48,922 nucleotides of DNA, taken from assembly GCA_902478725.1 (NCBI GenBank), contig CABSMD010000001.1, positions 1-48,922 of the forward strand, in the 5' to 3' direction. This DNA comes from an uncultured Clostridia bacterium. Its GTDB lineage: Bacteria; Bacillota; Clostridia; HGM11514. The notes below the pieces were generated by a model. The model was not told where the DNA came from and made no database searches. It saw nothing but the letters and a program-made list of their open reading frames with translations. Position numbers and translations under genes: made by a program. Positions 13,096 to 46,735 of the stretch are shown here, piece after piece. Within the stretch, counting starts at the first letter, position 1, and every line of letters begins with the position of its first letter.

Positions 13096-14118
13096 TTACA
13101 GGCCGTCCACAAACTGGTTATAGCCCTTTTTATCCACCGGTACGCTGATCTCACCGCTTATGATTCTGTCCCGCACCGCCTCAGCCTGCTTTTGAAGCTT
13201 GCTGTCATCCGCCGGGAAAGCCAGCTTAATCCCCCCGTCGGACAAGCCGAAGTGGATATTATTCACACGTTTTCCGCTTAAATAGTCCTTCATGACGGTA
13301 TACACCACATTGTCCACCCGGTTGGCCACCGTCATCAGCACAGCCGGCTGGTCCTTATACAGCTTTGTACTGATGAACTTCGCCCCCGCGTCAGACGTGG
13401 CTTTTAAGACCAACGGGTCGGCATTGACCGCCATGGAAAACACAACGTCCGCCCCATCCTGACAGAGCTCGCTCGTAATCTGATAGGCCTTATCACTGCC
13501 TGCCTTAATGGTATCCTCCAGCACCTTTATCTCACCCTTGCCCGCTTCCTTGCCTCCCAGCACCGCACCGGCCTTGAAGGCGTACAGGCAATCCTTATCC
13601 TCCTTATCGCCGCCTATGAAGCCCACCGTGCCGCTATTGCCCGCAGCCGCGGCTGTGTAGCCGGCAACAAAGGCTCCCTCCGGCTCGCGGAACAGCACGC
13701 CGGTCACGTTGGGATATTTGTCCGGGTCGGGATTGCGCATTCCAACCACGGCATAGCCGATCCCGGGATGCTTGCGGCTGCTGTCCAACAGTTCGTCCAG
13801 CGCGGGTGTTTCACTCATCCAGATAAAGTTGTGCTCATCCTTATAGCAGCTGTCAAACGCCTTTTGGTATCCCTTTTTATCGGTTTCCTCCGGAATGACG
13901 TAGCTTGAGACGACGCCAAGCTCATCCTGCACACGCACCAGCGCATTCCAGATGGCGGTGTCGTTCTCATTGTCATTGACGTCCTCCCCGTTTGTCACCA
14001 GTGCCGCCCGAATGCTCTCGGTATTCAGGTTATCCGACCGGACCTGCGGCGCCGATTTGCCACAGGATACCGTCAAAAGCAACAGGCAGACGGACAGGAT
14101 CAAACATCTCAATTTCAT
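13096..14118 (-). CDS. BMP-family (PnrA/Med-like) substrate-binding lipoprotein
   Basis: 340 aa. Lipobox LLLTVSCG. The overall pattern recalls BMP family ABC-type binding proteins. No permease or ATPase genes are adjacent. Confidence 0.8.
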   Translation of the reverse strand: MKLRCLILSVCLLLLTVSCGKSAPQVRSDNLNTESIRAALVTNGEDVNDNENDTAIWNALVRVQDELGVVSSYVIPEETDKKGYQKAFDSCYKDEHNFIWMSETPALDELLDSSRKHPGIGYAVVGMRNPDPDKYPNVTGVLFREPEGAFVAGYTAAAAGNSGTVGFIGGDKEDKDCLYAFKAGAVLGGKEAGKGEIKVLEDTIKAGSDKAYQITSELCQDGADVVFSMAVNADPLVLKATSDAGAKFISTKLYKDQPAVLMTVANRVDNVVYTVMKDYLSGKRVNNIHFGLSDGGIKLAFPADDSKLQKQAEAVRDRIISGEISVPVDKKGYNQFVDGL

Positions 14119-14149
14119 TGGGGTTGCTCCTCACAATTTGGTATGGGTT

Positions 14150-14217
14150 AAAAAGCCTATGGCTTTTTCAGCGTGTCGATAAAGTCGACACGCTCAAAAA
14201 AATGCAAGCATTTTTTT
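14150..14217 (-). terminator. Three consecutive hairpins between the RNA candidate and the BMP RBS (possible attenuator or expression platform)
   Basis: On the minus strand: A7-UGCUUGCA-U7 palindrome (14196-14217), a GC-rich 10-bp stem AGCGUGUCGA/UCGACACGCU (14170-14194), and AAAAAGCC-AUA-GGCUUUUU (14150-14168). Confidence 0.4.
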
Positions 14218-14221
14218 GAAA

Positions 14222-14403
14222 ACTGGTCGTAGAAAGCGCCGCTGATTCAACTATGCAGAAAGTCTATGAAGCCTTGAATCAACGGACTTTCCGGCCCGCT
14301 TCGGCGGAATGAATCCGCCTGCTCGAACGGCATGGAAACTCTTCGTTTCCATACCTTCCGCTGATAGAAGTGGGCTTTTCGACAGTCTGTTTTTTCCTCT
14401 GTC
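14222..14403 (-). ncRNA. Candidate structured RNA (unclassified leader/riboswitch or sRNA), about 180 nt
   Basis: Lies immediately downstream of a TTGCAA / TGcTATAAT promoter. A closing helix between 14386-14372 and 14240-14222 encloses four hairpins. G-U wobbles occur only in the minus-strand reading. Confidence 0.45.
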
Positions 14404-14404
14404 G

Positions 14405-14453
14405 TGTTTATTATAGCATATTCTTATCCATTTGCAAACCCATTCTGAAAAAT
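14405..14453 (-). promoter_or_regulatory. Extended -10 promoter module, copy A (TTGCAA, 16 nt spacer, TGcTATAAT)
   Basis: The -35 is at 14432-14437 and the -10 at 14410-14415 (reverse complement TATAAT), with TG at -15/-14. 45 of 49 nt are identical to 17221-17269. Confidence 0.65.
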
Positions 14454-14512
14454 CTCCATGGAGGGATGCATCAGGAGGCCGGATATGTTATACTATAAGA
14501 CAGGTGAGAAGG

Positions 14513-15352
14513 ATGAAAACAAATTCTGAAATCATAAACTTTGCCGGGGAGCTGGGTCTTTCCTGCTGCGGCTTTGCCGCATGGGAGGGGAGGCGTGCGT
14601 TTGTCTGCCTGTTCCCTTATTATACCGGAGAGCTGCCGCCCTTTCCCATGGCGCGCTACGCGCGGATCCCGGACTATCACAGGGTGGCGAAGGGCTATTT
14701 ACAAAAAATCGCGGATTTTACCGGGGAGGATTGCCAGATCTTTGCGGATTCCGGCCAACTGCCGGAACGACGGCTGGCGTATCTGGCGGGTCTTGGATGG
14801 ATTGGGAAAAATGCCTGCCTGATTCACCCTGTCTATGGCTCCTATGTCTTTATCGGCGTACTGCTGTTGGACTGTTTGGACACGACGGTCGATCCGTCTG
14901 ACGCCGGAAGGGAGGATGGCGCGGCGGAGCGTTTGACCACAGCGTGTATCCCGGATGGGTGCGGGGACTGCACGGCCTGCATCCGGGCCTGTCCCGGCGG
15001 GGCTTTGTCGCCGATGGATTTTTCACGCTGCATTTCCCACCTGACCCAAAAAAAAGAGCTTTCCGGGGAAGAGGAGGAACTGGTGCGGCGGGCGGGCTCT
15101 GTCTGGGGCTGTGATGTATGCCAGGCGGTTTGTCCCAAAAACAAGGGGATTCCAAAAACGTCGATTCGGGAATTTTATGGGCTTACGCTGACCTCTTTTG
15201 AGGGGATCGAAGCGTTGTCGAACCGGGGGTTTTTGAAAAAATACAAGGAGTATCCGTTTACGTGGCGGGGAAGGGGTCCGCTGGTGCGCAACAGTAAGTT
15301 GACCGGACTATATTTCCCGGGAAATAAACAAGATGGAGGTAAGCAAAAATGA
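14513..15352 (+). CDS. queG: Epoxyqueuosine reductase
   Basis: Start at MKTNSEIINFAGELGL. Motifs LAYLAGLGWIGKN, CGDCTACIRACP and WGCDVCQAVCP fit QueG. Confidence 0.8.
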   Translation: MKTNSEIINFAGELGLSCCGFAAWEGRRAFVCLFPYYTGELPPFPMARYARIPDYHRVAKGYLQKIADFTGEDCQIFADSGQLPERRLAYLAGLGWIGKNACLIHPVYGSYVFIGVLLLDCLDTTVDPSDAGREDGAAERLTTACIPDGCGDCTACIRACPGGALSPMDFSRCISHLTQKKELSGEEEELVRRAGSVWGCDVCQAVCPKNKGIPKTSIREFYGLTLTSFEGIEALSNRGFLKKYKEYPFTWRGRGPLVRNSKLTGLYFPGNKQDGGKQK

Positions 15353-16056: not shown

Positions 16057-17091
16057 TCAGCCGTCCCGGCCCCGGCGGGGCAGGGGAGCAAGCGAGGAAA
16101 CCTGCTCTATGGAAGGCATGGACGCCATCCCGCCCCGTTTTGTGGCAGCCAGCGCCCCAACGGCGTTGGCAAAGCGGATGATATCCTCCAATTCTCCGCG
16201 GCTGAGGACGGACAACGGCTTGTCATATTGCAAAAAGGCATACAGGAAGCCGCCGAAAAAACCGTCCCCCGCGCCGGTGGCGTCTACGGCGTGAACCGGA
16301 AACGACGGTACGCCGCCCGTCTCTTCCCCACGGCGGTAGAAGCAGCCGTCTTTGCCCAAGGTTACTAACACAAACTGTGCCGCGCCCTGCTTTGACACCG
16401 GCTGCTTACTCTGCGCCGGTATAGGCGGGTGCTCTTGTGGCTGCCGGCCGCTTAGCTCCATTAAAAGCCGGCTGCCCTGCTCCAAATCTTTGCTCCCGGT
16501 TAAGAAAAACAGTTCCTCCCCCGACACCTTGACGATATCAGCACAAGAAAGGCCGAACAGCATCTGTTCCTTCGCTGTCTCCAGGCTGTCCCACAGAGAG
16601 GGGCGCAGGTTGGGGTCGAAGGAGATGGGGATCGCTTTTTTCCTGGCGTACGCAAGCAGCTTTTTTGTCGCAGACCGCGCCGGTTCGGCGGTCATGGTCA
16701 GGGAACCGAAATGGAACAGTTTTGTTTGATCCAAAAGGCGCAGGGGAAGCTCCTCCGGCGACAATTTCACGTCCGCCGTGTCTTGGCGGTAAAAGCTGAA
16801 ATCCCGCTCCCCATCCGGCGCAAGGTGGACGAACGCAAGCGTTGTCGGGTCATCCGACTGCAAAAGCCCGCTGGTATCGATCCGAAAATCCTCCAGCATT
16901 TTTTTTAAAAAACGGCCGAACGCGTCCTGTCCCACCTTGCCGATGAAGGCGCCCTTCCCGCCCAGGCGGGACACCGCCGCCAGAAGGTTGGGCGGCGCAC
17001 CGCCTGCATTTTGCTCAAACGCGGTCTTTCCATCCTTTTCAAACGGGGTAAAATCGATCAGCAGCTCACCGACTGCAACAACGTCAAACAT
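16057..17091 (-). CDS. PfkB-family sugar kinase (fructokinase-like)
   Basis: Start at MFDVVAVGELLIDF (ATG 17091, with an AAGGAGG RBS). NAGGAPPN and DATGAGDGF motifs. Carries a Pro/Gln-rich insert near aa 216-238. Confidence 0.85.
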   Translation of the reverse strand: MFDVVAVGELLIDFTPFEKDGKTAFEQNAGGAPPNLLAAVSRLGGKGAFIGKVGQDAFGRFLKKMLEDFRIDTSGLLQSDDPTTLAFVHLAPDGERDFSFYRQDTADVKLSPEELPLRLLDQTKLFHFGSLTMTAEPARSATKKLLAYARKKAIPISFDPNLRPSLWDSLETAKEQMLFGLSCADIVKVSGEELFFLTGSKDLEQGSRLLMELSGRQPQEHPPIPAQSKQPVSKQGAAQFVLVTLGKDGCFYRRGEETGGVPSFPVHAVDATGAGDGFFGGFLYAFLQYDKPLSVLSRGELEDIIRFANAVGALAATKRGGMASMPSIEQVSSLAPLPRRGRDG

Positions 17092-17220
17092 GGGTATTGC
17101 CTCCTTTTGGCCAATATTCTTTCCGGAAACCACCGGTTCCATTCAGACAGGCAAGAGTTTTGCGAAGCAAAATCTCCACCGGCAGGGTTTGCGTCAGCAA
17201 ATCCCGAGAGGTACATACTA

Positions 17221-17269
17221 TGTTTATTCTAGCATATCCGTTTCCATTTGCAAACCCATTCTGAAAAAT
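17221..17269 (-). promoter_or_regulatory. Extended -10 promoter module, copy B (TTGCAA, 16 nt spacer, TGcTAGAAT), upstream of the kinase
   Basis: The -35 is at 17248-17253 and the -10 at 17226-17231. 45 of 49 nt are identical to 14405-14453. Confidence 0.6.
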
Positions 17270-17325
17270 ATCGGCAGGAGACGAGGCGATACACCCACTG
17301 TAAGACTGGCGGGCAGGGGACAGGC

Positions 17326-20300
17326 CTATTTGTCCAGCAGCCGCCTGAGCAGGCTCGCCGCCTGTGCGCGGGTCGCGTTTTCTTTGGGAGCGAAGGTGTC
17401 CGCCGTCAGGCCGGAGATCAATCCCACGCTCACAGCCTGGTCTACATAATCCGCCGCCCATTCTGCGATCTCGCCCCGGTCGGCAAACCGGTCAAGCTGG
17501 CCCCGGACGGTTTCTTTTTTCTGGAACAGAAGGGCTTTTACAACCACCACCGCCATTTCTTCCCGGGTAATCAAATCCTCCGGCCGGAAATAACCGCCGT
17601 AACCCTGGAGCAGCCCCGCGCTGGCGGCGGCATTGACGGGCTGTTCATACCAGGCGCCGGACGCCACGTCGGAAAAACCTGCCGGTGAATTGCCGGTCAG
17701 GTGCAGCGCCCGGGCAATCAGGGCGGCGAATTCCGCGCGGGTAATGGGCCGGTCGGGTTCAAAGGTCGTTTCGGTCACGCCGGACACGATTCCCCTCTCC
17801 GCCATCTCATTCACGTCCGCCTCCGCCCAATGGCCGGCCATATCGGCAAAGCGGGAGGCCGGTGCATTGCTTTGCGGTTTATTATTATTTGTGTTATCAA
17901 CGCCGCTGTTACCGCCGCCTATGATACTGCCGGATCCACCGCCCGGGGCAGGTCTGGCTGTTACTGTAGGCGCGGGACCGGGGTTCGGGGAAACCGTCGA
18001 AGCCGTCTTATTTACGCTGGAGGCAAAGGTCCGTATCGCCTTTTCAAGCGCCTTCACCGCCTGGTCGACCTCCTCCTGGCTGTTTGCCTCTTCGATTGCT
18101 TTCACTGCCTTTTCGATCGCTTTGTTCAGAGCGTTTACCGCCGACTGGGGATAGGTTCCTTCCGCCGTGCCGATCACCGCTTCGCTGACCTGTTTTCGGG
18201 CGTCTTCCAGCACCTGTTCGGCCAAAGCTATATCAAAGGGAACCCGGACTGTGCCCGACCATGTTTCCTCGCCGGTTCGCCCGTTTTCATCGACGGGAAT
18301 GACGGAATAAACAAGCTCCTTTCCAACCAGCACCGGGGTGACCGAAAGCCTTGCACCACTCTGTCCGACGGCGGTTTTCCCGCCGTTACCGTCTATGGTA
18401 TACCATTGGATGACGCTGTTGCCCTGTCTGTCGCCGTCGGCGTCTACAAAATCATATTTGGCCGTGAGGAGGCCGCCCTCCTTGTTTTCGCCTTCCATCA
18501 CCGCATGGCTTACAGAGGGCGCATACCCGCCGGGGATTTTTGTAATACCCGAAGATTCATACGCATGGATTCCGATCCGGCTTGTATCGATGTTTTTAAA
18601 ATCCGGCGCCTTCTCTCTGACCGCCGCCAATCCCTCCTGCGTCAGCGCAAAATCCTCTCCGTACGCCACAAACATGGAATGTCCGGAAGGGAGGATATCC
18701 GTTGTCGCAAGATAGGAGTTGGTCTCGGTGCCTGCGGAATCCGGATAAAGGCCATGGCCGGAATTTGCCGATTTTATGATGACATTATCGGTCATGCTGT
18801 TTGTTGCGGGGTCATAATTCGCCTGGGCAATCTCTACAAGCTTGGCATAATCGCCGGCGTTGTTGGGGTCGAGGTCTTTTATTTCTTCATACTGCGCCAG
18901 GTCTATGGAATTAATATAGTCCTCCCACTGGGTACCCGCATACTGTTTTTTATGCGCCTGTGTCAGCAGCTGCCCCTTGCCGACATAGTATTTCCACCAG
19001 TTGTATGCCGCGGATGGCTCTTTATCCCGCAGCGCAAGCCACCAACGCACGCCCCAATCCTGAAATTGGACGGCGTAAGGGTTTTCAACAAAGATATTGT
19101 TTTTGACAAGGCCATACTGGCCGCCATAGGTTTTGATGGCAAAGTTCTTTTGATCGCCCGTACCTTTGGAGTATGTTCCCTGGTAAAAAATATTCCCCTC
19201 GATTTTAGGCCCGATAGAACCGTCATCCCAGAAAATGGATTGCTGCCAGCCGTTTGCAAACGAGGTCCCGATATGATGGAAATAATTATTCGTTATTTCA
19301 TAGCCGATGCTCGTCGGGGTTCTGCCCCAATAGATCGCCGCCATATCTCCCGCCCAGGTTACGCCGTGATGGATCTCATTGTTGGCTATTGTATGATTCT
19401 TGCCGTTTAAGCGGATCAGCGCGTGCGCGCCGTTGCATATTTCGTTGTTTTGCAGGGTTATGCCGCAGCCGGACACGATAATGGCCGACGCGTACGCCTT
19501 GCGTAAGGTGTAGGTCGAATCGAACAGGTTATTTTCCACCACCGTCCCGCTGGGTTCCAGGGTGTTGGGATCCCCGCCGCTTACCGTCATTCCGCCCGCG
19601 GCCCCGTTGTAAACAAAGCTGTTGCGGAATAGGTTGTTTGAACCGTCCAGTGTATTCCGTTTGGTAAAGGATTTGAAATTACAGCCGTCGAAGGTAAAGT
19701 TGTCCGCCGATACGTCAAATACGCGCTCCCGCACATATTCAAAATCCATATCCTTGATTGTTATGTTTTTCGCGCCGTTTACCGTCAAAAACGCTTTTTG
19801 CGATACGGGAACGATGATCTCGGCGTTCTCCATATCAGCGAAGGGGTAGAAGTACACTATTTTATTCGCACGGTCTATGTAGCTTTCGCCGGGCAGGTCT
19901 ATTTCCTCAATCAGATTTTTGAAGTAGAAGCTTGTACCCGCCACAGGAAGGTAGGCCGCATGCCTGTTTTTGAATGTAACCTGATGCGCGGCCGCATCAA
20001 GCTGGCCGACCCGGTATTCGGAATAGGTCCAATGATACTGCGGATGGCCTTCGTAAAACAGCCCGTCAAGCGCCTTTTCAGACCATTTGGAAAGGCGGTT
20101 CGCCGAATCCGCAAAGGTGAACGAAGAGATACCCTCGGGATTGGAATCCGCCTTGGTTATCACCAGTTCTTTCTCACCCTCGTTGGGCCAGCGCGCCGGC
20201 GTCAGTGCGGTTCCGTTGACAAAAACCTGAACCTGCGACGCAAACAGGCCGTCGGCTGTCTGGTCGGCTTCATTCGTATGGCTATATTCAGCAGACTCGG

Positions 20301-21870
20301 GTATTTCTTCATAAATTTCCGACAGGTCAAGCTGCATCAGCTGTTCGGCGGCGGATTTGTCGATCACCCTGCTCAGAATGTTCTCGTCGGTCACCTTGGA
20401 AAGCTTATCGGCCCGCACTCCGCCGGTAAATACAGCCCTTTCGCCGGGATAGGAGGCATAGGTGATCGAACAATCAGCCGCCGCGGAATCGGCGCCCTCC
20501 AGCACAAACGTCTCGTCACGATAGTATTCTCCGCCTCTGAAATAGACAATGACATTTTTATTAAGCCCATTCGCTTTCAAGGCCCGGATGGCGTCCCTTG
20601 CCTGCTCCGGCTGGGCAAACGGGTCGCTGAAGGAGCCTGCCGCGTCCGGTTTTCCGTTGGGCGCGACATAAAATATGACCTCCCCGTCCTGGATTTTCAA
20701 CGGGTCGGAGGTTTTTGGTTCTCCCGCAACGCCGTCCGCATCCTTCGGCAGGACGGTCACCCGGACAAAGCCGGTAAGCCCCGCCGGGGCAAAGACAGGC
20801 GACGTTCCTTTGGAAACCGTTGTCCAGCCGTCCGTCCCGTTTTCTGAAACCTGCCACTCAAACACAGTTTCCCCTTCGGCCTTTCCGTCCTCGGGTTTTA
20901 CATACTCATAAGCAGCCGTTATTTCCCCGTTGCTTTGTTGCAGGGAAACCCCGTCCACGGACGGGGGCGTGCGCAACGGCAGAATTTGTTTGCCTTCCGA
21001 TACGATTACGCCGGAGGGTTCGGCGCTCCCCGCCCGAAACCATTTTACGGTGACCCTGATACAGTTTCCGGCTGACCCGGCGGGAACCACGCAGGAGGCC
21101 TGGGAGTCCGCCAAATCCGTCCACGTCTGGTTATCCTCTGAGATCTGCCACAGATATTCGGTTTTTTCCACTACGCCGTCCACATCCGTATAATCGCAAA
21201 CGGCGGAAACACTGGAGGATTCCATGGGGGCACTGTCAATGGAAACAGATCTGAATTCCGGTTCCTTCTCAGGCCGGATCAGCTCAATCTTGAGATAATC
21301 GATCGAGAACGCATTGCCGGCTCCCGCTAACAAGAGAAAAAGCTTTTCCGCTGGGATGGTGATGGAATCGATGGACGCACCCGCTTTGTCTTTTAGGCCA
21401 TACACCGAAAATTCATAGGAAACGTCGGTCCAATCCTCAGAACCGTTCTTCGCGCTGCCTCTGTATTCAGGAGAATTGTCATAGATTTTTGATGTGAACT
21501 CTCCGTTTTCGGCAAGCTGCCATTGCCCGGCCGCGTATACCTCAAGCCCCAGGAAATAGGACGCATCTCCCGCCATTTTTGTCCGGTAGCTGACCCGGTA
21601 TGTTGCATTTTGGGACAGCTTTACATCCCCTCCCGTATAGGCTATCCGCGCGGACTGGCTATAGCCGGATACCGTCAATGCCCCGTCCTCCACGGCCATG
21701 GCTGCCGCTTCGTTTTTGTTGTCGGTTAACTTCCAGTTTGCCAGGGACGCACTGGTAGTAAAGGTATCTTCGAATACCGTTTCAGAAACGGTATCGGCTT
21801 TGATTTGCGGCGTTTGGGTAAAGCAGGTCAGCAAAACCGCCGCCGCAAGCAATAAGCTTATTTTTTTCAT
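17326..21870 (-). CDS. Giant S-layer-anchored secreted protein of 1514 aa. Domains: signal peptide, CBM-like jelly-roll, Ig-like repeats, right-handed beta-helix core, FIVAR-like helical module, three SLH domains
   Basis: Signal peptide MKKISLLLAAAVLLTC. Repeated NN-x-I/F beta-helix turns (about aa 640-900). C-terminal 175 aa (17329-17853) contain three SLH repeats (FADMAGHWAE..., FSDVASGAWY..., FADRGEIAEW...). Confidence 0.85.
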   Translation of the reverse strand: MKKISLLLAAAVLLTCFTQTPQIKADTVSETVFEDTFTTSASLANWKLTDNKNEAAAMAVEDGALTVSGYSQSARIAYTGGDVKLSQNATYRVSYRTKMAGDASYFLGLEVYAAGQWQLAENGEFTSKIYDNSPEYRGSAKNGSEDWTDVSYEFSVYGLKDKAGASIDSITIPAEKLFLLLAGAGNAFSIDYLKIELIRPEKEPEFRSVSIDSAPMESSSVSAVCDYTDVDGVVEKTEYLWQISEDNQTWTDLADSQASCVVPAGSAGNCIRVTVKWFRAGSAEPSGVIVSEGKQILPLRTPPSVDGVSLQQSNGEITAAYEYVKPEDGKAEGETVFEWQVSENGTDGWTTVSKGTSPVFAPAGLTGFVRVTVLPKDADGVAGEPKTSDPLKIQDGEVIFYVAPNGKPDAAGSFSDPFAQPEQARDAIRALKANGLNKNVIVYFRGGEYYRDETFVLEGADSAAADCSITYASYPGERAVFTGGVRADKLSKVTDENILSRVIDKSAAEQLMQLDLSEIYEEIPESAEYSHTNEADQTADGLFASQVQVFVNGTALTPARWPNEGEKELVITKADSNPEGISSFTFADSANRLSKWSEKALDGLFYEGHPQYHWTYSEYRVGQLDAAAHQVTFKNRHAAYLPVAGTSFYFKNLIEEIDLPGESYIDRANKIVYFYPFADMENAEIIVPVSQKAFLTVNGAKNITIKDMDFEYVRERVFDVSADNFTFDGCNFKSFTKRNTLDGSNNLFRNSFVYNGAAGGMTVSGGDPNTLEPSGTVVENNLFDSTYTLRKAYASAIIVSGCGITLQNNEICNGAHALIRLNGKNHTIANNEIHHGVTWAGDMAAIYWGRTPTSIGYEITNNYFHHIGTSFANGWQQSIFWDDGSIGPKIEGNIFYQGTYSKGTGDQKNFAIKTYGGQYGLVKNNIFVENPYAVQFQDWGVRWWLALRDKEPSAAYNWWKYYVGKGQLLTQAHKKQYAGTQWEDYINSIDLAQYEEIKDLDPNNAGDYAKLVEIAQANYDPATNSMTDNVIIKSANSGHGLYPDSAGTETNSYLATTDILPSGHSMFVAYGEDFALTQEGLAAVREKAPDFKNIDTSRIGIHAYESSGITKIPGGYAPSVSHAVMEGENKEGGLLTAKYDFVDADGDRQGNSVIQWYTIDGNGGKTAVGQSGARLSVTPVLVGKELVYSVIPVDENGRTGEETWSGTVRVPFDIALAEQVLEDARKQVSEAVIGTAEGTYPQSAVNALNKAIEKAVKAIEEANSQEEVDQAVKALEKAIRTFASSVNKTASTVSPNPGPAPTVTARPAPGGGSGSIIGGGNSGVDNTNNNKPQSNAPASRFADMAGHWAEADVNEMAERGIVSGVTETTFEPDRPITRAEFAALIARALHLTGNSPAGFSDVASGAWYEQPVNAAASAGLLQGYGGYFRPEDLITREEMAVVVVKALLFQKKETVRGQLDRFADRGEIAEWAADYVDQAVSVGLISGLTADTFAPKENATRAQAASLLRRLLDK
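21412..21560. repeat. Nucleotide-level duplicate of the CBM-like module (copy in the giant gene)
   Basis: About 150 bp are highly similar to 22576-22725, including a near-perfect core of about 55 bp (ttcataggaaacgtcggtccaatcctcagaaccgtt...). Confidence 0.6.
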
Positions 21871-21882: not shown

Positions 21883-23535
21883 TTACGATATGACAACCGT
21901 TTTCCACTCTCCGGTCACCATTTCACCGTTGATCACCGCATATACCCTTGCCTCATAGGTGCCGGGCTGGATCCCGCGGCCGTAGGCCCGGATGCCGAAC
22001 AGGTTATTCGTTTCCGAAATCTCGGTCACTCCTTTTAAACGAATAATCTCTGCACCGCCCGCTTTTTTCAGCTCGACCCCAAACTCGGAAACAGTGTTTC
22101 CCTGCGCTGAAACCGCAGAAAAGACAAGAATACTGTTTTCGTTGTTATACTGATCCGTCAGAATCTTTCTTTCTGTAACAGACGGGGCCGGCGCCGCCTC
22201 AAATACCGCAATAATTGTGCTGTCCGTATCAAACGCCAGGTCGATACGGTCTAATCCCGGGTATTCCACCGTTTCTCCAGCCTTGTTTGTCACAGTAAAT
22301 TTGCTGAAGAGACAGCCCGGCTTCGCCTCGGCCGACACCGTTGCTTTGGCCGCCGTCACCCGGCCGCCGTTTGCCACCGAAGCGCCGTCTATAGACACCG
22401 TTCCCATTGAGCTGTCATAGGAGACGCCGACATTTTCGATGATCTCCTCGATTTTGAGATTGTCTATATAAAAGGTCGTATCGGCATACGGCAGATTGAA
22501 AAACAGCAAATTTGCAGGAACAGTAATGGAATCGATGGCCTCTCCGGCTGTGTTTTGTAACTCATACATCGTAATTTCATAGGAAACGTCGGTCCAATCC
22601 TCAGAACCGTTTTTCGCGCTGCCTCTGTAGCCGGTGGAATTGTCATAGATTTTTGATGTGAACTCTTCGTTTTCGCCAAGCCGCCACTGCCCGGCTGCAT
22701 GTACCTCCAGCCCCATAAAATAGGCCTTGTCTGAGATCATTTTTGTTCTGTAGGATACGCGGTATTTCGTGTTGCTTCCAAATTTCAGGTTCCTGCCCTT
22801 GTACGCAAACCGGCCCGAACCAACATACTTCAGCGCCCCGTCTTCCGCCGTGAGTTCGCCGCCGGTCGCGCTCCAATTTGCTAACGACGCCTCATCAAAG
22901 TGATCCTCAAAAACCGTGTTTACCAACGAATTGCCTTGCCGGGCAAACGGTATTTTTTCGATCTTAAAATTCTTTATGTAATAGTCGGTCGCTGTATTCA
23001 GCTGGAAAAAAAGTTTATTGGCCGGAATGGTAATGGAATCGATCGAAGCTCCGGCATCATTTTTGATGTCATAGACGGTAAAATCATACGAAATGCCGAC
23101 CCAGCCGCTGGTTCCGTTCGACCCGCCTCCCCGGTAGGTATTGTCATAAATCCCTGAGGAACCGGAGCCGTTCGGCGAAAGCTGCCAGCTTGCCTTTGTA
23201 CCGCCGGTATTCAGCTCAATCCCCAGAAAATAACTGCCCGCCGCAGGCGACATGGTTTCATAGGAAACGCGGTACCTTGCTTTTTTAGAGAATACGATAT
23301 CGCCGCCGGTATAGCTGACCCTCTTCGGGCCGGAAATGCCGCCCGCTGAAAACTTAACCGCGCCCTGCGCGGCGTCAAAGCTTGCGGTGACGCCGTCCTC
23401 ACAGACCCAGCCGGTCAGGGAACCGTCCGCATGAAAGGCTTCGAACACGACGGTTTCGTCCGCGGCGGATACGCTCCCACACACGCATGTTAACAGGAAA
23501 ACGAAGATGGAAAGTAACAGAATAGACTTTTTCAT
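21883..23535 (-). CDS. Secreted protein with two CBM-like jelly-roll modules plus C-terminal Ig-like domains
   Basis: Signal peptide MKKSILLLSIFVFLL...SVSA. The ATG at 23535 is preferred over the GTG at 23547. Two internal copies of the module are also found at the giant protein's N-terminus. Confidence 0.7.
   Translation of the reverse strand: MKKSILLLSIFVFLLTCVCGSVSAADETVVFEAFHADGSLTGWVCEDGVTASFDAAQGAVKFSAGGISGPKRVSYTGGDIVFSKKARYRVSYETMSPAAGSYFLGIELNTGGTKASWQLSPNGSGSSGIYDNTYRGGGSNGTSGWVGISYDFTVYDIKNDAGASIDSITIPANKLFFQLNTATDYYIKNFKIEKIPFARQGNSLVNTVFEDHFDEASLANWSATGGELTAEDGALKYVGSGRFAYKGRNLKFGSNTKYRVSYRTKMISDKAYFMGLEVHAAGQWRLGENEEFTSKIYDNSTGYRGSAKNGSEDWTDVSYEITMYELQNTAGEAIDSITVPANLLFFNLPYADTTFYIDNLKIEEIIENVGVSYDSSMGTVSIDGASVANGGRVTAAKATVSAEAKPGCLFSKFTVTNKAGETVEYPGLDRIDLAFDTDSTIIAVFEAAPAPSVTERKILTDQYNNENSILVFSAVSAQGNTVSEFGVELKKAGGAEIIRLKGVTEISETNNLFGIRAYGRGIQPGTYEARVYAVINGEMVTGEWKTVVIS
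22576..22725. repeat. Nucleotide-level duplicate of the CBM-like module (copy in the 550-aa gene)
   Basis: Partner of 21412-21560. Confidence 0.6.
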
Positions 23536-23555
23536 CACAAAAAACACTCCTTTTT

Positions 23556-28879: not shown

Positions 28880-31711
28880 TTATTCCTGTGGTACGGTGAA
28901 GGCCTGGGACTGTGCATAGATGGTCTCGGTCTGCGTTTCACCGTCCTTCTGCACCACTACATAAGGACGCATGACATAGGTCTTGCCGGGGATCAGAGCC
29001 GCACCGAACACCCGCACGCCGTATTTCCCATTGGTTACCTCGTTCACCTCAAGCGGCAGGGAAAGGGTAGTATCGTCCTCAGCGTATATCTCAACGCCTT
29101 GTTTTACAATCGTATAGCCATAGCCTTCGTTCATGTTGGCGAACATCGTCGCGCAATACTGGCCGGTACCCTGCGGGTAGGTTCCCGCTATGGGCGCGCT
29201 GGTCTGGGCGAAGGATGGCTTCTCCTCCGTCTTTTCCACAAAGGTCACCGAAAGAGCTGTCGTATCCTGTATGTTTTTCAACTCCAGGGTATCATTTGTT
29301 ACGACAGCCGCCTGGTTGTTTACGGTTACCTCGCCGGTCTGCCAGCCCGCTTCCGGCTGGAACGTGATGGTTTTGTTGCTCGCAAACGGCACAGTTACCT
29401 TCCCACCGGTGACGATCTCCTGCCCATCCGCCACCACCTTGCCGCTGCCGGCAATGGTTACGGTAAGGTCCACGTTATTGGTACGGCGCAACGGCGAGAA
29501 GCTCAGGTCGTCATAAATGGAACCAATGGTTCCGGAATCGTCGTTATACAAACCGCGCGCACGGACATAATGCATGGCGCGGTAGACGTTGGTCGAGCTG
29601 CTGACCAGCACGCCGTCGAGATAGATTTCGGTGTTATTCACTGTTTTCGGGCTGGCCGGATTGGGATCGTCGTTATAGCCGATCAGGGTTACCTGATGCC
29701 ATCCCTTGGACCGGGGCATATTGGCCCGTCCGTCCTTTCCGTCAAGCAGGGCGGAGCCTGCAGAATAGTAATCCTTGGTGTCGTCGGTCACGCCCACGTC
29801 GACGCTGTAATCGGTCAGACCATCCGTTTTTCCAAGCCCATTTGTTGAAAACTGGATCTGCGCCTTGGCGTTTGTTTTCTCCCCGCTATCATAGAACCAG
29901 CCCTCCGCGATATAACTGGTAGAGGGATTGGCGTTATCGTTGTAACAATCGACATACACGCTCGTGGAATGCACCTTAACCGCGCCCGCGCCGGTGCGTA
30001 CGATTTTATCCTCAAAGGTACTCTTTTTGGCGGTAAAGCCCGAATTAGGATTGTTGAAATCCTTCCGAGCGCCGGACGCAGATGGCAACACACTGATTAG
30101 AATGGAGGCCTGTGCGCTGGAAGTGTCTGTATTTGTTAAAGTCGCGGTGATGATCGTCGTTCCAAGGCCTTTGATGGACAAAGCACCGGCTGCATCCACG
30201 CTTATAACAGCCTCATCACCGGAGGTATAGGTCAGGCGGGAATCACCGCTGATCTCATAGTCGCCGGCCGATGACCTTCCCCAAACAGTGAGGGCCGCGC
30301 CGGTCTCTCCATACACATAGGACGAAACCGATTTGCCCAAGGAAATGGAGGTGAAGGTCATATTTTCGATATCCGGCGCCACCTCCACCGGCCCGATGAC
30401 GTTGGACTCGATCAGATTGCTGTCATAAGGTTCGGCGGTAGATTTCGCCTGCACGGTTGCTTTTATGTATTTTCCGACGTCGCCTGCGGTCAGGGAATAG
30501 GTTTTTCCGGTCCCGACCGGCTCGCCCCAATCGCTCTGGTCGGCGCTCACGTACCACTTGATCTGGACGTTCGCGGCGTCCTCCGCATCGCCATTTTCAT
30601 CATGGTAGGAATACGAAGAAAGAGACAGCTCCTGGCCGGTATAGGCGTTGCCCGCGATCACGGCATTGCGGATCTGGGGCGCGGCAGCCTCTGTTTTTTG
30701 GATGTTGTATACCTTAAAATCATCCAGATAGATCGTCGTATCCGCCTTGCTGTTTTTCGGGGTACGATCGATTTCAACGCTCGAAAGCCCCTGGTTCCAG
30801 CCACTCAGGTCGCGTGTCGCCAGCACCTGGCCGTCGATGTAAAGGGTATACAGGTCATCCCTGGAATAGTCGATAATCAGCTGGTGCCAACCCTTGCTGC
30901 GGGGAAGATTCTTTTTGGCAAACGCCGGATTGGTACCATCCTCATGATAGCTATAGGTATTGTCGGCAGAATACAGCCGGATATATCCACGGATGGACTG
31001 GGTGGACAGACCGTTGGCCATATTGCCCATGATCCAGAAATGGACGTACTTTTTCGACTCCTCCATCCCGTCATAGAACCACATCTCCGCCACACCGCGG
31101 AAGGAGGCGGCGTTGGCGCCGTTGGTAAACGGCCAGGGGTTCATACGAAGCCATTTTCCATCCCCGAGCTTCTCGGCAGCGGTTGCGTCCGCCGCCGCGG
31201 CCTCTTTGTTTGTATTTGGGTCTATCTGGCGCAGAAAAAGGGACTGGCCTGTTCCCGTGCGGGTCAGATTGTTTTGCGCGTAGACGGGCTCGTCATAGGT
31301 GTATGGCCCGCCGCCCTGTGGGCAGGAATAATTATAGGTCTCGGCTGTGTCAAAGTTTTTCTGCGCCTTGATTTCCTTATAAACCACCAAGTTTATGTTT
31401 TTGCTCAAGCTGCCATAGGCTGCGGTGATGACCACCATACCCTCGCTCCTGGCGGTTACAGCGCCACTTGCCGCGTCAATCTGCACGACGGAAGGGTCGC
31501 TGCTTGTAAACGACACCCCCTCGGTCAGCCTGGTTTTCGCACCGGACGCATCCACTCCATAGACTTCTACTGTGCTGGTCGCGTTTAGGGCATAGCTTGT
31601 CTGGTTATTTGACAAATCAAGCGCGGTATAGTCCGCCGCGAACGCGGGAAACGCAAAGCTTGACAGCGCAAACACCAGCACAACAGCCAGCAGCAATGCT
31701 TTGTTCCTCAT
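28880..31711 (-). CDS. Secreted 943-aa protein with Big_2 Ig-like domains and two LamG/concanavalin-like modules
   Basis: I place the start at MRNKALLLAVVLVFALSSFAFPAFA, using the frame of the ORF track. My hand index of the ATG differs by 1 nt. Two Big_2-like segments, and two jelly-roll modules sharing the motif PRSKGWHQ. Confidence 0.7.
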   Translation of the reverse strand: MRNKALLLAVVLVFALSSFAFPAFAADYTALDLSNNQTSYALNATSTVEVYGVDASGAKTRLTEGVSFTSSDPSVVQIDAASGAVTARSEGMVVITAAYGSLSKNINLVVYKEIKAQKNFDTAETYNYSCPQGGGPYTYDEPVYAQNNLTRTGTGQSLFLRQIDPNTNKEAAAADATAAEKLGDGKWLRMNPWPFTNGANAASFRGVAEMWFYDGMEESKKYVHFWIMGNMANGLSTQSIRGYIRLYSADNTYSYHEDGTNPAFAKKNLPRSKGWHQLIIDYSRDDLYTLYIDGQVLATRDLSGWNQGLSSVEIDRTPKNSKADTTIYLDDFKVYNIQKTEAAAPQIRNAVIAGNAYTGQELSLSSYSYHDENGDAEDAANVQIKWYVSADQSDWGEPVGTGKTYSLTAGDVGKYIKATVQAKSTAEPYDSNLIESNVIGPVEVAPDIENMTFTSISLGKSVSSYVYGETGAALTVWGRSSAGDYEISGDSRLTYTSGDEAVISVDAAGALSIKGLGTTIITATLTNTDTSSAQASILISVLPSASGARKDFNNPNSGFTAKKSTFEDKIVRTGAGAVKVHSTSVYVDCYNDNANPSTSYIAEGWFYDSGEKTNAKAQIQFSTNGLGKTDGLTDYSVDVGVTDDTKDYYSAGSALLDGKDGRANMPRSKGWHQVTLIGYNDDPNPASPKTVNNTEIYLDGVLVSSSTNVYRAMHYVRARGLYNDDSGTIGSIYDDLSFSPLRRTNNVDLTVTIAGSGKVVADGQEIVTGGKVTVPFASNKTITFQPEAGWQTGEVTVNNQAAVVTNDTLELKNIQDTTALSVTFVEKTEEKPSFAQTSAPIAGTYPQGTGQYCATMFANMNEGYGYTIVKQGVEIYAEDDTTLSLPLEVNEVTNGKYGVRVFGAALIPGKTYVMRPYVVVQKDGETQTETIYAQSQAFTVPQE

Positions 31712-31792
31712 AAAATATCTCTCCTTTTTATGTAGTGTACTCTCTTCATTCCTTTCCATTATATCTTTTTTTGCTTCGACCGTCAACGAATT

Positions 31793-31847
31793 AAAAAACA
31801 TGCTTTGTTTTTTGTATGTAATATACAAGTAACAAAGCATGTTTTTT
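31793..31847 (-). terminator. gyrA terminator (long nested hairpin)
   Basis: 17-bp outer stem AAAAAACATGCTTTGTT/AACAAAGCATGTTTTTT enclosing an inner TTGTAT/ATACAA stem, 17 nt after the gyrA stop. Confidence 0.75.
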
Positions 31848-31863
31848 ATGAATCGGACAGTAT

Positions 31864-34356
31864 TTATTCCTGCGGTTCGCTCTCCGGCGCGCTGTTTTCC
31901 ATTCCCTCTGACACCTCCGTGCCGGGTTCCTCCTCTTCCTCCTGCTCGGTACGCGCCATCGAAACCACCTTGACCCCGTCATCCAGCCGCATGAGCCGCA
32001 CACCCTGGGTCGCACGCTTATATTTACTGATGTCGCTGGCCGCCATGCGGATGATGGTTCCCTCGTCAGTAATGAGCATGATATCATCCAGATCGGTCAC
32101 GGCACGGATTCCTACCAGCGCGCCGGTTTTATCGGTGATCTTATAGGTCGATATGCCAAAGCCGCCGCGGGTCTGGACGCGGTATTCGGAAAAATCAGTC
32201 CGCTTGCCGTAGCCGTTTTCGGTTACGGCCAACAGGTCGCTGTCCTCCCGGATGGTGGACATGCCGATGACATAATCGCCCCCGCGCAGGTGGATGCCGC
32301 GCACACCATGCGCGGTTCTGCCCATCGGGCGGACGTCGGTTTCCTCAAACCGGATCGCCATACCCTGCTGGGTACCGATCACAATCTCATTGTTTCCATC
32401 GGTCAGCTTCACCCGGATCAGCTCGTCCGTCTCATCCAGCGTGATAGCATTTAAGCCGCCTTTTCGCATCGATCCATACTGCACCAACGGCGTCTTTTTG
32501 ATAATGCCGCACCGGGTCGCCATTAAGAGGTATTTCCCGTCCTCAAAATCCGAAACAGGAATCATCGCGGTGATCTTCTCCTCCGACTCCACAGGAAGCA
32601 GGTTGACGATCGCGGTTCCCTTGGCGTGCCGCCCGGATTCTGGTATTTCATAGCCTTTGAGATGGTACATCCTTCCCTTATTGGTAAAGAAAAGGATGTG
32701 GTCATGGGTAGAGGCGACAAACAGGGTTTCGACAAAGTCCTCCTCCCGCGTGCTCAGGCCCATGATCCCCTTGCCGCCGCGCTTTTGGCTGCGGTAGGTA
32801 TCGGTCGGCTGGCGCTTGATATAGCCAAAGTGGGTGAGGGTAATGACGGTTTCCTCTTCCTCGATCAGGTCCTCAAGATCGATGTCATCCACCGCCGGCA
32901 CCAATTCGGTACGGCGTTCATCCCCGAACTTGTCCCGTACTTCAATCAGCTCATCCTTGATGATGCTGCACAGCAGCTCTTCATCCGACAATATCTGCTT
33001 ATAATAAGCCACATTTTTCATCAGCTCGTTGTATTCATCCTCAATCTTTTCGCGCTCGATCCCCGCCAGGCGTGCCAGACGCATGTCCAAAATCGCCTGC
33101 GCCTGCAGGTCGCTCAAGCCGATCTGTTCCATGAGGTTCTCTTTCGCATTGTCATAGCTGCTGCGGATGATGTTAATGACGCGGTCGATATCGTCCAGCG
33201 CGATGCGGAAGCCCTCTAAGATATGAATACGGGCCAGCGCCTTATCCAGATCGTACTGGGTGCGCCTGGTGACGACCTCCTCCTGGAATTTCAGGTATTC
33301 CTCCAGCATCTGCTTCAGGCTCAATACCTTGGGCTTTTGATCCACGATCGCCAGCATATTGATGCTGAACGTTTCCTGCAGCTGGGTATATTTATAAAGC
33401 TGGTTTAAGACCACGCTTGCGTTGGCGTCCCGCTTCAGCTCGATGACGACCCGCATACCGTCGCGGTCGGACTCGTCGCGCAGGTCGGAGATACCTTCCA
33501 CACGCTTGTCCCGCACAAGCTCGGCCATTTTTTCGATCAGCCGCGCTTTATTGACCTGGTAGGGGATCTCGGTCACAACAATGCGCTGGCGTGTCTCGGT
33601 CATCTGCTCAATCTCCGCACGGGCGCGCATGGTGATTTTGCCCCGCCCAGTCTCATATGCCGCACGGATACCGCGCGTACCCAGAATCAGGCCGTAAGTC
33701 GGGAAGTCCGGCCCTTTGATATGCGCCATCAGCCCGTCGGTGGTGATGTCGGGGTTATCGATCAGCGCAACGGTGCCGTTGATAAGCTCGGTCAGGTTAT
33801 GCGGCGGGATATTGGTCGCCATGCCTACCGCGATACCGGACGAACCGTTCGCCAGCAGGTTGGGGAAGCGGGAGGGGAGCACGGTCGGCTCCTTTTTGCT
33901 CTCGTCGTAGTTCGGCATGAAATCCACGGTATTCTTTTCGATGTCCCGCAGCATTTCCATTGAAATTTTAGACATACGGGATTCGGTATACCGGTATGCA
34001 GCGGGCGGGTCACCGTCCACCGAACCGAAATTGCCCTGCCCATCTACCAACGGGTAGCGCATAGAAAAATCCTGTGCCAGACGCACCAGCGCGTCGTACA
34101 CCGACGCGTCGCCGTGCGGATGGTAGCTGCCGAGCACGTCGCCGACGGTGGTGGCACACTTTTTATATGCCTTCTCCGCTGTAATGCCGTCCTCGTACAT
34201 GGTATATAAAATCCGCTTATGTACGGGCTTGAGCCCGTCTCTCACATCGGGCAGCGCACGGCCGATGATGACGCTCATGGCATAGTCGATGTAGGAGGTC
34301 TTCATCTCTTTCTCGATCCCGACGTTTATGACGTTTTGTCTTTCCTGTTCATCCAT
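31864..34356 (-). CDS. gyrA: DNA gyrase subunit A
   Basis: 830 aa. Motifs [27 protein letters not shown] and GKYHPHGD-type ([20 protein letters not shown]). Confidence 0.97.
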
Positions 34357-34408
34357 ACTTTATCATGCTCCGTTCTGCTGTATTCTTTTCTATACGGGCC
34401 TATTTTCA

Positions 34409-36617
<2,209 letters not shown>

Positions 36618-36637
36618 ATATTTAAATTCCTTTCGGT

Positions 36638-37744
36638 TTAGTCTGTTCTGACGACCGAGCCGTCTTCTACGCAGAAAAAGCGTTTATGTTCCCCGGGTGT
36701 GAACACATGCGCGTCGGTACAGGTGATGAGCACCTGATGACGCTGGATCTGCCCCAGCAGGTATTCCTGCCGCTGGCGGTCAAGCTCGGACAGGATATCG
36801 TCCAGCAGCAGCACCGGGTATTCCCCCACAGCCTGTCTGACAAGCTCGACCTGAGCCATCTTCATGGTGAGCACCACGGTCCTTTGCTGCCCCTGCGAGG
36901 CATAGCTTTTGACATCTGTGCCGTTGATATAGAAATCGATATCATCCCGGTGCGGACCGCACAGGCTCATGCCGGACGCTCGTTCGCGCGCCGCGTGCCT
37001 GGTGAGCGCCTCCCAAAAAGCCTCCCGAATGGCCGATTCGCTCTCTAAATCCGCCTCCACCGAAGGATGATAGCGCAGAAGAAGATCTTCGGATTGTTTT
37101 GTAATCTCGCTATGTACCGCCCCCGCAAGCTCGTTTAAACGCCGCACAAACGCCGCACGGTACAGCATGATCCGCGCGCCGGTCTCGCACAGCTTCTGGT
37201 TCCAGACCGACAGCATTTCCTCATTCTGCGGGTCGGAAAACAGCTCCTTTAACAGCCTGTTTTTGTTCTCCAATATTTTATGGTATTGCATCAGCACCGT
37301 AAAATAGTTGGGTTTTAGGGGGCTGATGGCATTGTCTAAAAATTTACGCCGTTCCGACGGGCCGCCTTTGATGAGGTACAAATCCTCCGGACAAAACAGC
37401 ACGGTATTGAAATACCCGATCATCCGCCCCAGACGGTTCAGCGCCACCCCGTTTAGGCGCACCTTTTTGCGGCGGTCATGGAACAATTCCAGCTCCGCCC
37501 GGTTTTCCCTCTCATACGCATCAAAAAACAGGGTCAGTCTGGCATGTTCCTGCCCAAAGGAAATCATCTCCCGATCGCGCGACTGACGAAGGGATTTGGC
37601 GTTGGAAAACAGGTAGACGGCTTCCAACAGGTTGGTCTTGCCCTGCGCGTTGTTGCCATAGACCACGTTGACGCCGTCGCAGAAGGTGATCTCCTGCTCC
37701 TGGTAGTTACGGAAATTCTGCAACCGAATCTGCGAAATCTTCAT
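36638..37744 (-). CDS. recF: DNA replication and repair protein RecF
   Basis: 368 aa. N-terminus MKISQIRLQNFRNY, Walker A GNNAQGKTN, and signature SQGQQR. Confidence 0.95.
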   Translation of the reverse strand: MKISQIRLQNFRNYQEQEITFCDGVNVVYGNNAQGKTNLLEAVYLFSNAKSLRQSRDREMISFGQEHARLTLFFDAYERENRAELELFHDRRKKVRLNGVALNRLGRMIGYFNTVLFCPEDLYLIKGGPSERRKFLDNAISPLKPNYFTVLMQYHKILENKNRLLKELFSDPQNEEMLSVWNQKLCETGARIMLYRAAFVRRLNELAGAVHSEITKQSEDLLLRYHPSVEADLESESAIREAFWEALTRHAARERASGMSLCGPHRDDIDFYINGTDVKSYASQGQQRTVVLTMKMAQVELVRQAVGEYPVLLLDDILSELDRQRQEYLLGQIQRHQVLITCTDAHVFTPGEHKRFFCVEDGSVVRTD

Positions 37745-37746
37745 CG

Positions 37747-37980
37747 TTATTGCTCCCTGCGCACCGTGAGCTCCAATGGCTCATCCGCAAACCGGATGGT
37801 GACAACGTCCCCCGCCACGACCTGTTTGCCACGCTGCGTCTCCACCGCGCCGTTTAACAACACGATCCCGTCCTGGATCATCGCTTTGGCAAGTCCGCCG
37901 TTCTCCGCTGCACCACTCATTTTCAACAGCTGCCCCAGCCGGATCACATCGGTCTGTATCCAGACCTCCTCGCGCTTCAT
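37747..37980 (-). CDS. yaaA: S4-domain RNA-binding protein (YaaA/RlbA-like)
   Basis: 77 aa, starting at MKREEVWIQTD. ATGA overlap with the dnaN stop. Its position between dnaN and recF matches Bacillus. Confidence 0.8.
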   Translation of the reverse strand: MKREEVWIQTDVIRLGQLLKMSGAAENGGLAKAMIQDGIVLLNGAVETQRGKQVVAGDVVTIRFADEPLELTVRREQ

Positions 37981-39080: not shown

Positions 39081-39097
39081 TGGTACAACTCCTTTGC

Positions 39098-39311
39098 GAT
39101 ATAATATCTTTTATAGATTTTATCCGTCATAGTCATAGGTGCTGTGTAATGTGTTAAAAAGTGTGCTGCTGCCTTCCGCGCGTAAGCGGGAGGGATGGGG
39201 AAAGGGATGTTGACGGATGGGGAGAAAAATAGGGTGTAACAGTTCCCTTTTTGTTTATACACAGGTTATCCATCCACAGTTGTGGAAAAGGCTGTGTATA
39301 ACTTATCCGCT
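39098..39311. other. oriC segment: DnaA-box cluster plus an AT-rich stretch in the dnaA-dnaN spacer
   Basis: One-mismatch DnaA boxes at 39255-39263 (TTATACACA), 39281-39289 (reverse complement TTTTCCACA) and 39293-39301 (reverse complement TTATACACA). Two-mismatch boxes at 39266-39274, 39270-39278 and 39303-39311. AT-rich run at 39098-39125. Confidence 0.6.
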
Positions 39312-40619: not shown

Positions 40620-40800
40620 TGGTGATTCCCCCTCGTTTTCGCGCGTAAACTCTCAAAATCAGCCCTGGAAATGAACCACCCTGCATTTTGTCAAAATGAG
40701 GGCGGAATTAATCTTTTATCTATATTATCATATCAAATATGGAGAAAATAATCAATGTTTAAATGAAAATTATTTTATTCTAAGAATTTCCCTTTTTTTA

Positions 40801-40829
40801 TTGACAAGAGGACGGGTTTTGGGTATAAT
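40801..40829 (+). promoter_or_regulatory. Consensus sigma-A promoter of rpmH (TTGACA, 17 nt spacer, TATAAT)
   Basis: TTGACA at 40801-40806, a 17-nt spacer, and TATAAT at 40824-40829, about 60 nt upstream of rpmH. Confidence 0.7.
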
Positions 40830-40891
40830 AAGAACGGTGTCTTTTAAAATTGGAAAAAACATACTGTTTAGAATAGAAGGAGGTGCTGCGG

Positions 40892-41026: not shown

Positions 41027-41088
41027 AGGCCACTGTCGTGGTCTTTTCTATTATGTACTTCCATTTTTATTTGGTAAGGGAAGCGAGT

Positions 41089-41645: not shown

Positions 41646-41661
41646 GAGGAATATATACTAG

Positions 41662-43283: not shown

Positions 43284-43295
43284 AAATGAAAAATC

Positions 43296-46726: not shown

Positions 46727-46735
46727 GGGGCGGCC

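Follow-up and report, generated by a model that had tools for sequence, protein, structure and literature searches.

The 394-bp gap between the divergent BMP and queG genes of an uncultured Clostridia bacterium raises the question of whether it holds a regulatory leader or a sequence of another kind. The window analyzed here is the whole 48,922-nt stretch of DNA. In it, the BMP gene (Pfam Bmp) occupies 13096-14118 on the minus strand and the QueG-like gene occupies 14513-15352 on the plus strand, so that start codons at 14118 and 14513 bound the gap. Downstream of BMP lie DnaD-like (DnaB_2), DnaI-like (IstB/DnaA-type ATPase), and LacI-family genes, as assigned by Pfam. A sequence-only reading had taken the gap to be too large for a plain promoter and had proposed that it encodes an unclassified structured element on the minus strand, possibly acting as a ligand-responsive leader of the BMP-dnaD-dnaI-lacI genes. 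The structured element itself is upheld, as it has no Rfam family and is conserved at other loci. Its assignment as a leader is not, and the structured stretch is probably a MITE-like non-autonomous mobile element inserted in the BMP leader of this strain.

The minus-strand promoter named in that reading is recovered by a promoter scan at 14410-14437, with TTGCAA at 14437-14432, a 16-nt spacer, and TATAAT at 14415-14410 preceded by TG. This TTGCAA-16-TGcTATAAT extended -10 promoter matches 10 of 12 consensus positions, and the surrounding 1 kb contains 4 promoter-like sites versus 0.8 expected. The BMP operon would be transcribed from ~14402. Further downstream on the same strand are a native 5′-UTR hairpin, AAAAAGCC-AUA-GGCUUUUU (14150-14168), and the GAGGAG ribosome binding site (RBS) of BMP (14127-14132), followed by the start codon at 14118-14116.

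The 52-nt BMP promoter stretch at 14405-14456 (GAGATTTTTCAGAATGGGTTTGCAAATGGATAAGAATATGCTATAATAAACA) has a 90%-identical copy at 17221-17272, upstream of a pfkB-family kinase gene (16057-17142, minus strand). The BMP and pfkB operons may therefore share a promoter and operator, for example the TTTGCAAA palindrome that overlies the -35 box. If these are common to both, the binding protein and the kinase could be co-regulated.

Searches for known identities returned nothing that would account for the stretch. Rfam 15 gave no match at the gathering threshold over the whole window, and between 13900 and 14700 at E<=10 the sole match was a chance miRNA (E=5.9); the earlier reading had likewise matched the stretch to none of the riboswitch classes it considered. 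6S RNA, which had been named as a family that could overturn the call, gave no Rfam match. The element resembles 6S RNA in its size (~180-200 nt) and its irregular closing helix, but it is not a conserved single-copy gene, and sister strains lack it. A tRNA/tmRNA scan of the region found none, Pfam identified no transposase in the window, and BLAST against plasmid and phage collections gave no match. A small ORF, 32 aa long in the frame of the window, was rejected for its non-conserved start and stop and its poor spacing to any RBS. A single frame is open across the element, but its start and stop differ between copies, and no conserved ORF crosses the unit. A retron, a group II intron fragment, an integron attC site, and 6S RNA were all ruled out by the Rfam negatives together with the presence of inverted repeats and target duplication, as was a PATE of the IS200/605 type.

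The nature of the stretch emerges from a comparison of orthologous loci, which were located on other assemblies via exact and near-exact BMP proteins. In one of these contigs, L001, the flanks are 98% identical and the promoter (identical in sequence), hairpin, RBS, and operon are the same, but 226 bp are missing. The empty allele is GAGGAAAAAAACCATAGG, while the filled allele is GAGGAAAAAA[221 nt]AAAAAGCCATAGG; in context, L001 reads ...ACGACAGAGGAAAAAAACCATAGGTTTTTTAACCC... and the window reads ...ACGACAGAGGAAAAAA[221 nt]AAAAAGCCATAGGCTTTTTAACCC.... The comparison delimits a 221-nt non-coding insert, CAGACTGTCG...CGACACGCTG, at 14169-14389 on the minus strand. It is preceded by an A-run at 14390-14395, which holds the left copy of a 5-bp (A5) target duplication; the right copy is the A-run of the native hairpin, whose stem-loop is the target. 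The element thus begins 14 nt downstream of the predicted transcription start, in the A-run at the 5′ foot of that hairpin. The promoter is not part of the element and occurs in the empty alleles as well, and the RBS is unchanged by the insertion.

Four further contigs (L002-L005) have the insert, and their sequence in this region is 100% identical to that of the window. In a sister lineage (L031-L050), whose BMP is 338 aa and whose flanks are ~89% identical to the window, 20 of 20 contigs are empty, with the promoter leading directly to the A-run and hairpin. Because all 20 sister-lineage contigs are empty, the empty state is, as judged from these alleles, ancestral, and the element was gained in the window lineage. 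The size of the gap is due to this insertion and not to a regulatory need. Homologs of BMP at 30-90% identity were not found, and a DnaI scan of GTDB genomes likewise yielded nothing.

The native hairpin is present in the sister lineage and in the empty L001, where it reads AAAAAACC-ATA-GGTTTTTT. Between the window (14150-14168) and L001 (2096-2114) it differs by a compensatory G-C to A-T double change, AAAAAGCC/GGCTTTTT versus AAAAAACC/GGTTTTTT, which suggests that this small terminator-like hairpin of the leader is maintained in its own right. Between the native hairpin and the RBS, the BMP leader of the sister lineage is also longer by ~100 nt (~2350-2470), and the added sequence includes a repeat of the TAATAAACAC(G/A)(G/A)CAGAG segment found after the -10 box. 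As its sequence indicates, this addition is a partial duplication of the leader and has no relation to the 221-nt element.

The same alleles could in principle be read in the opposite direction, with an ancestral leader lost from L001 by slippage deletion between the A-runs and no insertion at all, since short direct A-runs do flank the segment and could mediate its loss. Such a deletion is extremely improbable. The sister lineage contains six distinct intergenic alleles, each empty at exactly this junction, and the unit of 221-222 nt recurs with the same ends at two unrelated loci, one of which has its own empty allele and both of which show site-specific hairpin duplications.

These two loci were retrieved with an exact 22-23-mer probe placed over the second hairpin of the earlier hand-drawn fold and its 3′ flank (GGCGGATTCATTCCGCCGAAGC[G]). 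Full-length homologs of 222 nt, 85-88% identical to the window copy and with the same ends, are found on two metagenome contigs. In L018 the copy lies just after the typA stop codon; the L015 copy has a GHMP kinase gene on one side and spoIIR on the other. A lookup of the L015 SpoIIR protein led to eight further complete filled contigs with the copy in that same position (L021-L028), one partial contig (L030), and one empty contig (L029). In L015 the element sits between two copies of a 35-36-bp hairpin, GGAGTATAATAAACGCTTCTGCATTTATTATACTCT, and the empty allele of L029 has one 36-bp hairpin where the filled alleles have hairpin-element-hairpin. Because L029 has exactly one copy, the whole stem-loop was duplicated at the spoIIR site. 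In L018 the element is placed between two copies of a 26-bp terminator stem-loop, AGGCGTTCTTTC(G/A)TTGAAAGAACGCT, with a U-tract after the second copy only.

Target duplications thus comprise A5 (window versus L001), 36 bp (L021-L028 versus L029), and 26 bp (L018, seen in the filled allele alone); in the window, nothing beyond the A5 run at the native hairpin's 5′ foot is duplicated. TypA homologs were searched for an empty counterpart of L018; the best of them is only 80% identical, too distant for this use. The three target hairpins are unrelated in sequence: AAAAAGCC-ATA-GGCTTTTT, AGCGTTCTTTC-GTT-GAAAGAACGCT, and GAGTATAATAAA-CGCTTCTGC-ATTTATTATACTC.

A ligand-responsive leader controlling a nucleoside-type binding protein and replication-initiation genes is, against this background, highly improbable. 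The element does resemble riboswitches and other cis-regulatory leaders in its 5′-UTR position behind a strong promoter, its multi-helix junction, and its conserved unpaired junction and loop sequences, and it belongs to no known class. However, a 98%-identical strain (L001) and the whole sister lineage (L031-L050) lack it, yet keep the same operon and promoter, and its homologs 3′ of typA and upstream of spoIIR deprive it of any single gene-family association. Target duplications and inverted repeats border it, its Rfam matches at E<=10 are noise only, no expression platform covers the RBS, and a terminator scan of the region found none.

The ends of the unit are in keeping with a mobile element. 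The left terminal inverted repeat, CAGACTGTCGAAAAGC (14374-14389, minus strand), and the reverse complement of the right end, CAGCGTGTCGATAAAG, agree at 9 of the 11 outermost positions, for which the chance probability is ~1.2e-4. The right repeat (14169-14184, minus strand) forms the 3′ arm of the terminal hairpin P7. At the exact boundaries, CAGACTGTCGA versus CAGCGTGTCGA agree at 9/11 positions in the window and at 8/11 in L015 and L018, so that the repeats are short and imperfect.

The MITE-like interpretation rests on a concurrence of features: the unit is small (221-222 nt) and has neither a transposase nor a conserved ORF, terminal inverted repeats occur at its exact boundaries, and a target duplication is evident against an empty site for A5 and 36 bp, although its length is not constant. 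MITEs are characterized by terminal inverted repeats, direct repeats, the lack of a transposase, stable RNA folds, and empty and filled sites (PMC3184786, PMC10969869). Bacterial MITEs and small repeats (Correia, RUP/BOX/SPRITE, ERIC, bcr1, Nezha, QMITE) share with the element a length of 100-400 bp, the absence of an ORF, inverted and direct repeats, empty and filled alleles between close strains, intergenic placement, co-transcription with neighbors, and very stable transcript folds (PMC3184786, PMC10969869). The element differs from them in that (i) its target duplication ranges from 5 to 36 bp and may take in an entire stem-loop, (ii) it forms a closed multi-helix junction with two 3′ hairpins rather than one long hairpin made by the ends, (iii) it is strand-asymmetric and G-U-rich, and (iv) it occurs as one copy per sampled region with no known parent IS. 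The element thus belongs to a known kind, while the family itself, from uncultured gut Clostridia, is undescribed.

Copy number is another respect in which the family stands apart. It is represented at three loci in three hosts, with one copy in ~67 kb of the window genome and one in ~20 kb of the L015 host. By nhmmer and blastn, no second copy was found in the window, in the ~18 kb beyond its ends, or in all other recovered loci. The exact 22-23-mer probe detected no full-length copies in 185,579 GTDB species genomes, five element tiles gave 0 matches to viral contigs, and a hairpin-1 22-mer gave 0 matches in metagenomes. MITEAba12, by comparison, is present in 1 to 22 copies per genome (PMC3184786, PMC10969869). 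Because the 22-23-mer retrieved full-length copies at two other loci only, the family looks rare or low-copy, unlike classic MITEs. DNA similarity between the window and L015/L018 is confined to the element, a second repeat family, and one 92-nt coding stretch at 77%.

The second non-coding repeat family lies at 47500-48785 of the window, upstream of parB-like and parA-like genes. Its ~98-nt units, AAGCAACTT(T/C)GGTTTCAACAGGAAAG...GAAAGCGAAGTTGCTTAGTAGCA, are each tied to a TATGGTATAAT extended -10 box, and their ends can form an 11-bp closing stem. In the species of L021-L030 (e.g., L023 12590-13025 and 4330-4740), they occur in 1-4 tandem copies whose number differs between strains. Rfam gave no match for this family in the window at 47400-48922. 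A further repeat, a 300-nt direct repeat with 75% identity at 21277-21576 and 22441-22740, is placed within a 1514-aa SLH/beta-helix surface protein gene (17326-21870) and the adjacent 554-aa ORF (21883-23547), and may represent a domain common to two neighboring surface proteins.

The mode of insertion offers clues to the enzyme that would move the element. The element has gone into three different hairpins, consistent with IS1182-type insertion at stem-loops regardless of sequence. A DDE transposase would move it in trans by attacking the feet of extruded stem-loops, and structure-dependent attack as in IS1272 (IS1182 family) would account for duplications that scale with the length of the hairpin. 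Confidence in any specific transposase family is nevertheless low: no autonomous IS with matching ends was found in the recovered loci, so that the family named is a guess. Other points that weigh against a MITE are duplications of 5-36 bp, which are unusual for a single transposase, inverted repeats that are short and imperfect, the single copy per genome region sampled, and an L018 duplication seen in the filled allele alone. Direct repeats of the IS1182 family range from 0 to 60 bp in ISfinder.

IS1272 and the IS1182 family likewise target inverted-repeat stem-loops whose sequences differ and which often lie immediately 3′ of genes, and in one pathway of the IS1272 model the whole stem-loop is duplicated when joining takes place at the 5′ feet (PMC5678879). 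In contrast to the element, IS1272 itself replaces the stem-loop and leaves no duplication, and it is ~1.9 kb long with a transposase gene and 16-bp inverted repeats; the two are likened by targeting and not by end sequence. The PATEs and omega RNAs of IS200/IS605 (HEARO, IS605-orfB) and REP/REPIN sequences resemble the element as small non-coding mobile units with a terminal hairpin and a strand-specific conserved fold. PATEs and REP/REPIN have neither target duplication nor terminal inverted repeats, whereas the element has both. Its left-flank ends differ between loci (AAAA, CTCT, CGCT), so that the fixed tetra- or pentanucleotide expected for an IS200/IS605 PATE or REP/REPIN is lacking. 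No Rfam match to HEARO or IS605-orfB was obtained, and no TnpA, TnpB, or RAYT gene is nearby.

The fold is less readily explained by a MITE-like identity. Strong folding of the minus strand, as claimed from the sequence, is well beyond chance: 14215-14405 has an MFE of -77.9 kcal/mol and a z of -6.6, with 0 of 200 shuffles as good, compared to a z of -3.6 for the plus strand, and the exact insert (14169-14389) reaches -101.8 kcal/mol with a z of -9.9. The hand-drawn fold proves partly correct. All of its base pairs are complementary, and its hairpins 1 and 2, the GAUUCAA/UUGAAUC helix, and the outer ACUG/CAGU closing helix are kept both in the MFE structure and in an RNAalifold consensus of the three full-length copies (window, L015, L018). 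It is not, however, the best-supported architecture. Its third hairpin and the inner half of its closing helix give way to a three-way-junction helix (14374-14367/14302-14295) and a long hairpin (14292-14275/14249-14231), and the proportion of paired cells over the three homologs rises from 88.9% in the hand fold to 96.9% in the consensus. The structured ~180 nt are real, but the unit runs further 3′, to 14169, adding two hairpins.

In the consensus, all on the minus strand, the structured core (14220-14388) is closed by P1, which pairs 14388-14383 with 14225-14220. Within it, the three-way junction is made up of the P2 helix already given, P3 (14361-14345/14339-14323; hairpin 1 of the hand fold, extended), and P4 (14319-14314/14308-14303; its hairpin 2). 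The long hairpin is P5 and contains the fourth helix of the hand fold. Beyond the core, consensus and MFE agree on P6, an A7/U7 hairpin (CAAAAAAAUGCUUGCAUUUUUUUG; 14195-14218). P7 is a perfect 10-bp terminal hairpin (AGCGUGUCGA-CUUUA-UCGACACGCU; 14170-14194) that ends at the element boundary and whose stem is invariant in 3/3 copies.

Variation among the copies is distributed unevenly over this structure. Variable columns make up 21 of 152 stem positions (13.8%) and 23 of 70 loop positions (32.9%; Fisher p=0.0018), for three copies and a structure derived from the same three. Stem cells in these three copies contain G-U over A-C at 24:1, and each of them folds better as the sense than as the antisense strand. 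Stem pairs with a change on one side comprise 11 that remain paired throughout the copies and 6 that do not pair in one copy or more. A double compensatory change occurs just once among the three sequences, and the shuffle controls do not reach significance. Taken together, the low stem variability, the large excess of G-U over A-C, and the better folding of the sense strand suggest that the fold of this strand is constrained, either as RNA or as single-stranded DNA. As the structure came from the same three sequences, these measures point to constraint but do not prove it. Such a constraint suggests that the fold serves the element itself or its transcript and not BMP regulation.

The most conserved part of the fold has a wider distribution than the element. 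P4 and its 3′ flank form a module, GGCGGAUUCAUUCCGCC-GAAGCG (14297-14319, minus strand), that is identical in all three full-length copies, and its exact 22-23-mer is also present in other multi-hairpin intergenic repeat families of other MAGs and metagenomes. The recovered loci of Hm464_bin68, an AT-rich Clostridiales MAG (L007, L008, L011, L012, and L013), hold six copies of the module, five of them exact and the sixth one loop base off. It is found as well in the MAG Firm_18 (L010, L014), three metagenome contigs (L016, L017, L019), and a Dormiibacterota MAG; one occurrence lies between two tRNA genes on a 67%-GC contig. In Hm464_bin68 and Firm_18 the module, as GGCGGATTCATTCCGCC-GAAGCG, is embedded in multi-hairpin intergenic units of ~90-125 nt; the genomes that hold the module, taken over all these occurrences, are unrelated and range from 38 to 67% GC. 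In the Hm464_bin68 units a second hairpin keeps the loop AGCTTGTC while its stem co-varies (TTTTCGGC, TTTTTGCG, TTTTTGGC), and one L014 copy has a compensatory GGCGAA/TTCGCC variant. None of these other module-bearing families (L007-L014) is in Rfam, which returned nothing relevant there.

This distribution lends itself to the alternative that the unit is a portable functional RNA module whose fold is selected for stability or processing, as a protein decoy, or as a mobilization cofactor, in which case the insertion signatures would show only how it spread. We regard this as unlikely, even though the multi-helix fold, the low stem variability, and the 24:1 G-U excess exceed what a plain dsDNA transposon would need. 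The alternative draws on the stem-loop contrast (p=0.0018), the predominance of one-sided changes that stay paired (11 versus 6), and the better folding of the sense strand. It also gains from the 85-88% identity of copies whose host contigs share almost no other DNA similarity, the recurrence of the invariant hairpin in other repeat families from low-GC to 67%-GC organisms, and the sense orientation of the element in 4/4 informative cases (flanking genes in the same direction). Against it stand the derivation of the consensus from the same three independent sequences, with their single double compensatory change and non-significant shuffle controls, and the fact that the element brings along neither a promoter nor a terminator and is dispensable in sister strains. 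Recent horizontal spread would equally explain the conservation, and a strand-biased mutation spectrum could yield the G-U excess. Also unlikely is a reading in which the element represents a previously undescribed class of mobile structured RNAs, with the strand-specific multi-helix fold, built around the invariant hairpin, as the functional part. The RNA could then be a cofactor or guide for insertion at stem-loops, or a portable protein-binding or stability module that host transcripts pick up at terminators and leaders.

Because the element in the window is sense-oriented and has no strong terminator, the host promoter would most likely transcribe it as a long structured passenger in the BMP 5′ UTR. 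The passenger structure may alter mRNA stability or read-through, and the operon would not need the element, because empty strains keep the same operon and promoter.

The window also contains the chromosomal replication origin region (28880-47440), in which gyrA, gyrB, recF, dnaN, and dnaA are on the minus strand and yidC, jag, mnmE, mnmG, a 234-aa ORF (46736-47440), and parB are on the plus strand. The counterpart of the 234-aa ORF on contig L051 has a GidB (RsmG) Pfam domain. If oriC lies near 40.7-41.6 kb, the sense strand of the element would be the lagging-strand template.

These results remove a tempting false lead, as there is no evidence for a ligand-sensing leader that couples nucleoside uptake to replication initiation by DnaD/DnaI. 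The apparent constraint on the fold and the module common to other repeat families keep a functional-fold reading alive. An undescribed non-autonomous family is documented with clean empty and filled alleles, and its whole stem-loop duplications are the outcome predicted by the IS1272 model, whose observed insertions replaced the stem-loop instead. Such insertions can put a stable structure of ~220 nt into 5′ or 3′ UTRs while sparing promoters, RBSs, and terminators, and they can therefore make expression differ from strain to strain and repeatedly give rise to false positives that look like riboswitches when genomes are scanned.
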